From the sequence record MG748547: a stretch of DNA of 64,000 nt; one strand, given 5' to 3'. The stretch's first letter is position 1. Each line of letters opens with the position of its first letter. The notes beneath the pieces were generated by a model. That model was given only the letters and a program-made list of their open reading frames with translations. It had not been told where the DNA came from and did not search any database. A program made the translations under genes and the position numbers. The stretch comes from Escherichia phage EP75. This document shows positions 52,733-55,131 of the stretch, piece by piece.

Positions 52733-55131
52733 CAAAATTGGCGGGGTCTGAGGCTTTTCACCTCACCTGCTGGATTGGCCTCCAGCTGTTCTCTCTGGGG
52801 ACTCGCTGTCCGGACAGCTATCCCTTAAACTATCGCCCCATATTCAATTGCACCAGAGCATAATTACCGCTATACGACCACCCTCTCGGGCAGGTTGGTT
52901 CTGACCCAACGTCTCTCTGATGCGTTTTATTGTGTGCCCAATCAAGGACTGTCAACCTTTTATCCCGTTTGTGCATGATCAGTTCATGCATGCCTCTTGT
53001 GCGCCTCACGGCAACGCGCTTCTGTAGGTCATCGACTTGCACTGTAGTCTCACCACAGGCGTTTATTTTTCCAGGGCTTTCCACTTACAAGTCTTAACCA
53101 GATCGGGATACGGGCTTGTAAGATCGGATTGGACACAACTTTGATGGCTCTAGGACTAAAGATCCCGCGTCACCCATAGACTTGGTTTATAAAATCTAGA
53201 GCCATCAAAGTTGCAACCAATGTCGCAACTCGCACTTCAGCGTCTTCGTCTCGCTTCAGCACTTGTCCTCTACGTTCGGACCAAACGAGGCTGGCCGACA
53301 GAAACATAACACCACTCATCACTAGAGCGAGGATGTGGTTGATAGCCACGATGTTACGTCTCTGTCGTAGAGTGATCACACTTGTCAGGATGATCACTGT
53401 TTTGCGAACTTGAAAATACTGCGCCTGTCTCGGGTTTCCCCTTAGTTCGGCCTCTCATTGTTCGTCTGGTCAGGGAGCTACCCTTGATGACCAGCTTATT
53501 TTGAGATCTTCGCCAGCACCCACTAGTGTCTAGAATATGTAGGTGTCGAGGTCTGCAAGGCATTGCCCTATTTCATACAACGCTCTCTCAAGTGCGCAAA
53601 TCGAAGTTCTCTGGGCTTAACAGGTTCGACCCAACATGTTGTATATCGCCTAACTTGCTCATGGGACGGACACATCTGTGTACAGACCTTGAGGGTTAAA
53701 AGATATACCCAGAGAACTTCGATTTGCGTAGCCCTTCACTTGCCAAAGATCAGGGCTAATAACAAGACTTCGCTCACATCTTTGAGGACACTGCGCGGGA
53801 CTCGAACCCGCCATGAACATCTGGCGCCAAATGCTTCCACCTGTCAATGTCCTCAAAGATGTGGAGCCGTTTTAGGGAGTCGAACCCAAATGATTGGCCA
53901 GCGCTGACCTCACATCCCATCTGACTTAGGCAACCCACCTCTGCTACTCAGGAGCTTATCCCCTTTGGACAGTCAGATATAACGGCTTTGGGATTGGAGG
54001 AAGGACTCGAACCTTCTCATGTACGCTCCTGATTTCTCAGAAGTAGCCTGCTCCCATCGACCTATTAAGTACACGCTCCGCTCATTGTTCGGCGGGAGCT
54101 TATTAATCACACCCTCCCACCTATTGTTAGTGCGCCGAATTTTGTTATGAGGAATCGGAAGACCTCACTGACTTATAGGCTATTACGCCGCCATCAGAAC
54201 TTCGGAATCATTAGCAGTTATTTGCTTGGTCAGTTTCTAAAAACCCGCAAAGTCACGCACAACGAAAACGAAAACCTGTTTGAGTCCTAAACCTACCTGT
54301 CTTGGTCTCACATCGATATGAGTGGCCAGGACTCAAACAGCTTGCCGTTCAGTGAGTTAACTATACTTTGTAACCCGTTATTGATAAAACCTTTTATTTT
54401 GTTGGCGAGGGTGCGGAATCGAACCACACTTCTGAGCGCTACCCCGTGTCACCAATGCACCACCTCACCATCGATTTGCCGGAACTTACGCATCCGGCCT
54501 CGTCCTGTCGGTGTTCTTCTGAATCCGGGAAGATCAGCAGGAACTATGAATCAAGTTAATTCAACCAACAGGAATCCTCTTGTTGCCCTTTGACGCAACA
54601 TTATGAACCCTCTATGAAGACTCATAATGTTGTCGGCGTGATGGAGATTAGCGCCCCCGACCTCCCCTTATATGTTGGTGTCGACTTGCCAACAGGGTGC
54701 TCTCTGATTCTGAGCTAATCACGCTACAACAGGGAGTTTCGTTCTCCGACGGTCAAGTGCGTCCACTGACACCAGCGAGGTGGCTATTACGCCTCTATTC
54801 ACACAAGCCCCTGAGACTAGGGGTTAACTGGTTTTGGGCTGCAAACCCGACTCCCACTGTGTTATTTCCCTCATGTTTAATACTTTACCGCAGCCCAGCT
54901 AATTTGAAAAGTCCTCTCCCCTTTGAGCTACACTGCCCACAGCAGTGCGGACGAACCTTCACTCAAAACCGGATGCGCCGAAGTGGGCAACTGTTTACCG
55001 GACTGATCGGGTAGACCCAGGAGAGAGCAGGTAATCCCGATCAGGAGGATGAGGAGTAACATCATGTAAAACATAGTGTTCCCTCCCTTCCATGCAACTA
55101 ACTTTACTACAATTATTTATTGAATAAAGCG

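Follow-up and report, generated by a model that had tools for sequence, protein, structure and literature searches.

The window analysed here, a 64,000-nucleotide (nt) stretch of Escherichia phage EP75 (MG748547), comes from a Vi01-like phage (Ackermannviridae, Kuttervirus) and is 97% identical to Salmonella phage Se-J across the region considered below. This region holds an array of transfer RNA (tRNA) genes and non-coding RNA (ncRNA) of ~3.6 kb (about 55130-51480), which is essentially non-coding in all relatives and is bordered on one side by a conserved open reading frame (ORF) of unknown function beside baseplate gene gp6 and on the other by a transcription terminator; its non-coding part is 72-88% identical between genera. 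The tRNAs called nearby by ARAGORN and Rfam, for Tyr (51918-52001), Asn (52397-52472) and Met (52658-52733), all lie on the minus strand. Our subject is the element at 53775-53863, a folded RNA domain, not a tRNA gene, within the tRNA operon of a Salmonella phage. It consists of a long closing helix, measured below in base pairs (bp), and of the RNA that this helix encloses, here called the cargo:

53775..53863, minus strand: whole element, 89 nt, a long closing helix with a three-way junction (perfect 16-bp repeat; minimum-energy fold)
53845..53863, minus strand: closing helix, 5' strand, CACAUCUUUGAGGACAUUG in RNA sense (covariation)
53775..53793, minus strand: closing helix, 3' strand, CAGUGUCCUCAAAGAUGUG (97% of cells paired)
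53813..53840, minus strand: inner cargo hairpin, 11 bp with a 2-nt bulge and a GCGC loop (fold; four varying pairs in six phages, all paired)
53795..53811, minus strand: T-arm mimic GCGGG-UUCGAGU-CCCGC, separated by 1 nt from the helix 3' strand that follows it

The closing helix is built on a perfect 16-bp inverted repeat (CACATCTTTGAGGACA at 53775-53790 and TGTCCTCAAAGATGTG at 53848-53863), whose core is formed by TTGAGGACA (53782-53790) and TGTCCTCAA (53848-53856). Inward, the repeat extends to 19 bp with one U·G pair (53775-53793 and 53845-53863); outward, the minimum-energy fold adds four further pairs beyond a single bulged C, a 1-nt bulge, for a total of ~22 bp. Folded as minus-strand RNA, the element reached -51.6 kcal/mol (z = -6.1), and none of 200 shuffled sequences was as stable. 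Uninterrupted stems of at least 14 bp occurred six times in the 4.5-kb region, as compared with 0.05 in shuffled sequences. An earlier reading made from the sequence alone (the sequence-only reading) had described an inverted repeat with an internal T-arm at this site. Both exist, but not where or as far as it had placed them (53781-53789 and 53845-53853): its 9-bp closing stem measured 19-22 bp, and the T-arm, thought to be offset by 5 nt, is only 1 nt from the 3' strand once the full stem is counted. Its view of the element as a tRNA-like structured RNA on the minus strand was borne out. The T-arm at 53795-53811 has a 5-bp stem and a UUCRANY loop.

The T-arm cargo is not the conserved feature of the element, as the stem is kept across phage families while unrelated sequences, some without a T-arm, replace the cargo. 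Wherever the slot is present in Ackermannviridae, it is bounded by AAAACGGCTCCA and GAGCGAAGTCT and carries a stem of 18-19 bp. The window-type cargo, 57 nt comprising the hairpin and the T-arm, was found in 68 records, nearly all of them Salmonella phages, with one copy in each. Vi01 and ECML-4, in which the flanks are ~94% identical to the window, carry 97 nt of unrelated hairpins at this position; A221 has a plain 8-nt loop, May and EspM4VN a different hairpin pair, and KWBSE43-6 and IME250 four hairpins, two of which are T-loop-like. The May-type and KWBSE43-6-type modules occur in tandem in EspM4VN, and from this arrangement, together with the cargo differences between phages, the cargo types are best read as paralogous modules of one array, from which different phages have lost different members. 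Such loss or exchange plausibly came about through recombination between modules with similar stems.

When the closing stem was aligned across cargo types with the cargo excised, 97.4% of cells were paired and 6 of the 22 pairs were double-changed; the covariation score within Ackermannviridae was 0.338 as compared with 0.107 for shuffled alignments (0/500 shuffles), and slid controls of the same alignment were only 30-55% paired. When viral contigs were scanned for exact 14-mers of the 3' flank, almost all matches were due to chance and only two loci were relevant.

Structural selection was also apparent within the cargo. Among six copies of the window type, which differ at ten variable columns, nine of the ten columns fall in predicted pairs and all nine keep their pairing (228/228 cells paired). 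These changes include U-A to A-U in the stem, U-A through U.G to C-G and G.U to G-C or A-U in the hairpin, and G-C to G.U and C-G to U.G in the T-stem (S8 and SF02); the tenth is a G to A change at the purine-57 position of the T-loop. The G.U intermediates fit the minus strand only, which is also the strand of all the T-arms and all the tRNAs of the region. Canonical T-arm hairpins numbered eight in the sense and none in the antisense orientation (0.05 expected), three of the eight belonging to tRNAs, and this bias recurs in every related locus. The G.U intermediates and the 8:0 T-arm orientation together argue for a minus-strand RNA rather than a DNA palindrome.

The latter alternative holds that the element acts as DNA, whether as a cassette like a miniature inverted-repeat transposable element (MITE), a recombination hot spot or an endonuclease or cruciform site, and that its RNA fold is incidental. 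It would account for the near-perfect inverted repeats, for the presence or absence of the module and the replacement of the cargo between close relatives, for the HNH endonuclease genes in the region of some phages and for the CACA...UGUG ends common to the stems. We nevertheless consider it quite unlikely: there is no MITE-like target-site duplication, the GCTC and GAGC flanks being complementary and not direct repeats; a U.G wobble is retained in 9/12 stems; the cargo intermediates and the T-arms each point to one strand; and the internal helices of the cargo are maintained by compensatory change.

The sequence-only reading had also argued that the element cannot be a standard cloverleaf tRNA, and this held against every tRNA search made. 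The covariance-model search it had proposed gave no ordinary-tRNA score, with no match to Rfam RF00005 on 53775-53863 even at E <= 10 (gathering threshold 29 bits), and ARAGORN reported no credible tRNA at the element at default or relaxed settings (-ps, -ps90, -i). One call made under -i would need an 'intron' of 1960 nt, and -mt gave calls for either strand; these intron-containing or organelle-type candidates were dismissed as noise. The fold includes neither a D-arm nor an anticodon arm with a 7-nt loop, the inner hairpin loop having 4 nt (<=6 nt). That the element is 'tRNA-derived', as had been suggested, could not be demonstrated, since beyond the T-loop motif the cargo resembles none of 89 phage tRNAs and no parent was found among them. 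A decaying tRNA pseudogene that retained its T-arm by chance would suit a tRNA cluster in which tRNA content varies and some pseudo-tRNAs are annotated, and the T-arm is indeed canonical. This origin is very unlikely in view of the missing cloverleaf, anticodon loop, Rfam tRNA match and tRNA resemblance, of substitutions that preserve a non-tRNA fold, and of a closing stem that is kept across phage families whatever the cargo.

Other known classes were likewise not recovered. The sole Rfam match at the element was mascRNA, at 17.7 bits against a gathering threshold of 42.5, and hits to miRNA or mascRNA families were at chance level and produced by the long hairpins. Protein coding was rejected, each frame being stopped in some variant and the cargo lengths differing by non-multiples of 3. 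The operon has an intrinsic terminator elsewhere, which the KWBSE43-6 and May records annotate at the matching position:

51482..51504, minus strand: intrinsic terminator ending the tRNA/ncRNA operon, 10-bp stem and U-tract (terminator scan)

A strong hairpin within a long transcription unit might itself be taken for an intrinsic terminator or attenuator. We regard this as scarcely credible here, because the stem is followed by AGCGAAGUCUUG with no U-tract; in addition, the terminator scan omits the element, the same strand carries tRNA genes downstream, and the real terminator is that at 51504-51482.

Some Salmonella hosts encode Rsr, to which the element could bind if it were a Y RNA-like (YrlA-type) ligand of host Ro60/Rsr. 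Its architecture, a stem formed by the two ends together with a T-arm module, is like that of bacterial Y RNAs, which also occur in phages (PMC4201824). However, the 5' stem strand lacks the YrlA motif GNCGAAN0-1G (as defined in PMC4201824), and the element, which has no D-arm, shows a hairpin followed by a T-arm in place of the YrlA order of T-arm, acceptor-like stem-loop and D-arm (PMC4201824). Relatives carry non-tRNA-like cargo instead, and a Y RNA-like role is extremely improbable. No TROVE (rsr/Ro60) gene was present among the seven neighbouring ORFs scanned.

The element directly follows, in the RNA sense, a second structured RNA:

53864..53990, minus strand: 127-nt cloverleaf-like RNA with a four-way fold, directly 5' of the stem (~95% conserved across genera)

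Among Ackermannviridae genera this 127-nt RNA is ~95% conserved as compared with ~73% for its surroundings, although it is missing in EspM4VN and only its last 12 nt are left in KpS110. It contains an imperfect T-arm (UUGGG-UUCGACU-CCCUA) and closes with the helix GCCGUU/AACGGC, in which the third pair is C3-G70 and not G3.U70. The helix is followed by a U and then by an encoded CCA that runs into the stem, so that C75 and A76 of the CCA are nucleotides 1 and 2 of the stem. In this phage the element thus forms, in physical terms, the 3' trailer of a tRNA-like RNA that ends in CCA. As the stem starts at that CCA, the 127-nt RNA could complete its 3' end only once the stem has been cut or removed.

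About 320 nt upstream of the element lies a further conserved segment, which we call the tag block:

54091..54276, minus strand: tag block, made of a 5' region, a ten-codon frame, a stop-codon hairpin and two further hairpins, the last of which has a GUGUGAUUAAUAA loop and is likely a pseudoknot (cross-family identity, covariation)
54180..54215, minus strand: SsrA-like frame GCU AAU GAU UCC GAA GUU CUG AUG GCG GCG UAA UAG, reading ANDSEVLMAA followed by two stops (codons 54215-54186, stops 54185-54180)

The tag block is 70-82% identical in T1-like/Skatevirus, N4-like and FelixO1-like phages, in one Acinetobacter phage and in E. coli prophages and plasmids, with matches in 553/5,426 E. coli genomes (~10%), mostly on plasmids; in one E. 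coli case it lies in a lambdoid prophage, flanked by Q and the holin gene. The block is unannotated everywhere and always adjoins tRNA genes or the usual tRNA site. Exactly ten sense codons and a stop were found in 20/20 loci (16 Ackermannviridae and 4 other phages), encoding ANDSEVLMAA, ANDDVVLMAA, ANDNTFLAVA or ANDAQFLAVA, with synonymous differences in the frame (GCA/GCU, AAC/AAU, GUA/GUU, UAA/UGA) and with no start codon or Shine-Dalgarno sequence. A hairpin with a covarying stem holds the stop codon in its loop; three pairs of the following hairpin covary, and one lineage supports a likely pseudoknot between 54134-54129 and 54113-54108. Overall, 98.8% of cells in the tag-block structure were paired and 7/18 pairs were double-changed (0/500 shuffles).

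A long-stem module of ~20 bp with variable cargo comes directly after the tag block and pseudoknot hairpin in EspM4VN, KFS-SE2, IME11 and the prophage; two additional T-arm elements separate the pseudoknot hairpin from the stem in the window and in KWBSE43-6. The stem keeps its position at the end of the unit in Ackermannviridae, T1-like, N4-like and lambdoid phages, and its arms in the last three groups are recognisably related to those of the window (CACAUC.../...GAUGUG as compared with CACAAC.../...GUUGUG, with CAUUG/CAGUG and the U.G pair at the top). In a cross-family alignment that was trimmed by hand to the stem, with the cargo excised and one bulged A removed, 96.9% of cells were paired, 12/19 pairs were double-changed and the covariation score was 0.549 as compared with 0.171 (0/500 shuffles); the U.G near the top of the stem is the one retained in 9 of the 12 sequences.

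It is possible, and we propose it tentatively, that the stem forms the terminal domain in an undescribed family of RNAs carried by mobile elements, ~200-350 nt long and composed of a tmRNA-like resume frame, a stop-codon hairpin, one or more pseudoknots and a long stem with exchangeable cargo. On this reading, the carriers, in each case next to tRNA genes, would be lambdoid, T1-like, N4-like and FelixO1-like phages, Ackermannviridae, and ~10% of E. coli genomes, mostly through plasmids. Should the tag frame be decoded, the RNA would be a phage-supplied template for trans-translation, by which the products of stalled ribosomes would be re-tagged with an altered degron (LMAA or LAVA in place of LAA). 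Tagging would then proceed without a canonical tRNA-like domain, perhaps with T-arm modules like the element, or host tmRNA/SmpB, acting in trans.

Two promoter-like sequences were noted beside the tag unit. A sigma-70-like promoter (TTATCA-16-TATAGT, 54360-54387, minus strand) lies just upstream of the tag block and of a long-stem module at 54352-54263, and in KFS-SE2 (locus 1461-1490) a strong TTGACA-17-TAGATT promoter directly precedes the tag block, which suggests that the tag unit can form its own transcription unit.

The tag frame raises the possibility that the element is the tRNA-like domain of a phage RNA resembling transfer-messenger RNA (tmRNA), namely a CCA-tailed, aminoacylated minihelix delivering the upstream frame in cis or as part of a two-piece RNA. 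Such a role would agree with the SsrA-like frame and its synonymous variation, the stop-codon hairpin and the pseudoknot upstream in the unit, and with the topology of the element, in which the T-arm adjoins the 3' strand of the helix and the other arm is capped, as in the tRNA-like domain of tmRNA. The Rfam tmRNA models also matched the tag block consistently, although below threshold (at best 33.1 bits against a gathering threshold of 47, RF04321). Against it, the helix of the element has no G3.U70 for alanine charging, no discriminator A and no encoded CCA after the stem, and no T-arm exists in the cargo of KFS-SE2, IME11, the prophage, Vi01 or A221, so that the T-arm cannot be essential to the unit. 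ARAGORN found no tmRNA at the element or in the unit, and in other phages no consistent T-arm or CCA partner was located downstream of the tag. Homology of the tag block or of the CCA-ending RNA to E. coli ssrA was considered and dropped: BLAST returned nothing, and in local alignments the tag region scored no better than shuffled sequences and the 3' end only marginally better. We therefore judge this role unlikely. The resemblance to tmRNA is a lead, and neither the unit nor the element is filed as tmRNA, because there is no canonical tRNA-like domain and no G3.U70, ARAGORN is negative, similarity to ssrA is not significant and most cargoes carry no T-arm.

On the observed structure, strand, structural selection, stem conservation, cargo swapping and genomic context we base a different reading, for which transcription, cleavage and interaction with host enzymes are inferred. 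With moderate confidence, we favour the view that the element is the processing and stabilising terminal helix of an undescribed tRNA-like or tmRNA-like phage RNA unit, part of the ncRNA of a minus-strand tRNA operon, in which the helix is constant and the cargo exchangeable. Of the roles raised by the sequence-only reading, that of a processing signal appears the most plausible. The helix has the length of an RNase III substrate (~two turns, 20-22 bp), with 18-19 bp plus 4 bp past the 1-nt bulge, and an RNase III-type stem length is kept in all cargo types. In the proposed scheme, the operon would be transcribed as a long minus-strand precursor carrying a composite unit, in the order tmRNA-like tag block, pseudoknot hairpin and, as its last part, the long stem. 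Cutting of the stem, most plausibly by RNase III, would release the upstream RNA so that its 3' end could be trimmed to the CCA, and the helix would in this way set the 3' boundary of that RNA. The stem might also protect the excised cargo, and the T-arm, if stacked on the helix, would make the cargo a tRNA mimic and a possible substrate or decoy for enzymes that read T-arms, such as RNase P, TruB/TrmA and the CCA-adding enzyme.

Several points weigh against this account. The roles given to RNase III and RNase P are deduced solely from helix length and geometry. Near-perfect Watson-Crick stems are also what a DNA-level palindrome would produce, and in some stems there are three A.C mismatches that on the opposite strand would form G.U pairs. 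Shuffling gave only modest support for the window-type cargo (15/500), because divergence among its copies is low, and the hand-trimming of the cross-family alignment biased it towards structure. Det7 is without the entire module, which is therefore dispensable. A literature search of incomplete coverage, by which novelty is not proven, found no paper describing the region, the tags or a comparable phage tmRNA-like RNA, and one apparent lead (PMC6207430) proved to be unrelated. Each of the alternatives discussed above is, in turn, contradicted by at least one tested feature.

The closest precedent for the element is the T4 species 1 RNA (rnaC). Both are non-tRNA RNAs encoded within a phage tRNA operon, on the same strand as its tRNAs. 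In rnaC a canonical T-arm (CCGGG-UUCGAAU-CCCGG) immediately precedes the 3' half of the terminal helix, and the places of the D and anticodon arms are taken by long hairpins. The two nevertheless share no detectable sequence homology; the terminal helix of rnaC is short and imperfect, it carries no exchangeable cargo and no tag block accompanies it. The likeness to tmRNA (RF00023, RF01849, RF04321) concerns mainly the unit, with its ten-codon resume-type frame (ANDxxxLxxA as compared with ANDENYALAA in E. coli), its stop codon in a hairpin loop as in helix 5, at least one pseudoknot thereafter and T-arm domains nearby. In contrast to tmRNA, the unit scores 33 as against 47 bits and has neither G3.U70 nor a helix enclosing the tag, and the element itself is without a tag frame. 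RNase III stems, such as those of the rRNA operon and of the T7 early-RNA sites, share with the element a helix of ~20-22 bp flanking a structured RNA in a polycistronic transcript, and the stem of the element keeps its length while its sequence covaries; here, however, the enclosed cargo is tiny and variable and not a conserved functional RNA, and cleavage is only predicted. The mascRNA and viral tRNA-like structures resemble the element in presenting a tRNA-like fold within a longer transcript, potentially read by tRNA-processing enzymes, but mascRNA is a eukaryotic family, and the element, which has no cloverleaf, falls far below its gathering score.

Phages of the Vi01/CBA120 type are widely used in typing and biocontrol, and ~3.6 kb of their genomes has been left unannotated or given spurious small ORFs. 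The array appears as a dense set of conserved structured RNAs with a design principle of its own, a conserved stem of 19-22 bp combined with interchangeable and sometimes tRNA-mimicking cargo, and it is linked to a tag-frame RNA common to unrelated phages, prophages and plasmids. If the element is processed as proposed, it would offer a tractable system for the punctuation and stabilisation of phage ncRNA, and would bear on the role of the long-unexplained T4 species 1 RNA and on the interference of mobile elements with ribosome rescue and tag-directed proteolysis.

The remainder of the array holds further T-arms and long stems:

54400-54470, minus strand: orphan T-arm element, not called as a tRNA (T-arm scan)
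53972..54041, minus strand: orphan T-arm element B, GAAGG-UUCGAGU-CCUUC, with a 3' end CUCCAAU-C-CCA, not called as a tRNA (T-arm scan; some phages only)
51756-51819, minus strand: orphan T-arm element, not called as a tRNA (T-arm scan)
51556-51655, minus strand: orphan T-arm element, not called as a tRNA (T-arm scan)
54634-54594, minus strand: hairpin (stem scan)
54352-54263, minus strand: long-stem module (stem scan)
53863-53775, minus strand: long-stem module, the element itself (stem scan)
53730-53593, minus strand: long-stem module (stem scan)
53223-53126, minus strand: long-stem module (stem scan)
52081-52006, minus strand: long-stem module (stem scan)

The orphan T-arms occupy fixed positions and their stems covary between genera; this holds for those at 54400-54470 and 51556-51655 in all relatives, whereas element B is missing in Vi01, May, A221 and EspM4VN. 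The T-arm at 51556-51655 directly precedes the operon terminator, as rnaC does in T4. The long-stem modules have stems of 14-24 bp and small branched interiors, and the stems covary extensively among Kuttervirus, Taipeivirus, Agtrevirus and Aglimvirinae. Several share a UUUGAG...CUCAAA core and starts of the form CA(A/C)A..., which suggests that the modules are a paralogous family.

Between tRNA-Asn and tRNA-Tyr, the stretch at 52283-52395 (minus strand) has a 7-bp helix (GTCGGGT/ACCCGAC) around ~100 nt that end in a T-arm-like GGGG-TTTGAAT-CCCC, and may be a further tRNA-like element. Upstream of tRNA-Met, Vi01 (locus 4104-4218) and KWBSE43-6 (locus 4328-4442) carry an extra module with a 22-bp stem, AAUUCAUAUUGCUGUGGGUAGU..., which does not occur in the window and is a further presence/absence polymorphism of the array. 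HNH homing-endonuclease genes lie beside the arrays of KpS110 (2236-2649), KFS-SE2 (2193-2672) and AB4P2 (2521-3012; all locus coordinates), and also in Se-G and SP1; these enzymes could drive module exchange. Small 'hypothetical proteins' are annotated on both strands across the region in several GenBank records (16 in KE28; also in May), and are probably spurious because the RNA structures covary and no frame is conserved.

Among the neighbouring genes, ORF189 was rejected as an SmpB-like or RNA-handling partner, having no match in Pfam, NCBIfam or the Protein Data Bank (PDB) and a single-sequence AlphaFold model of unusable confidence (pLDDT 36). The 441-aa product of the ORF at 48532-49857 (minus strand) has a weak Pfam match, below the curated cut-off, to a PLP-dependent enzyme fold, and the 149-aa product of the ORF at 48043-48492 (minus strand) weakly matches an ADP-ribosyltransferase (ART-PolyVal/DUF3990) in Pfam.

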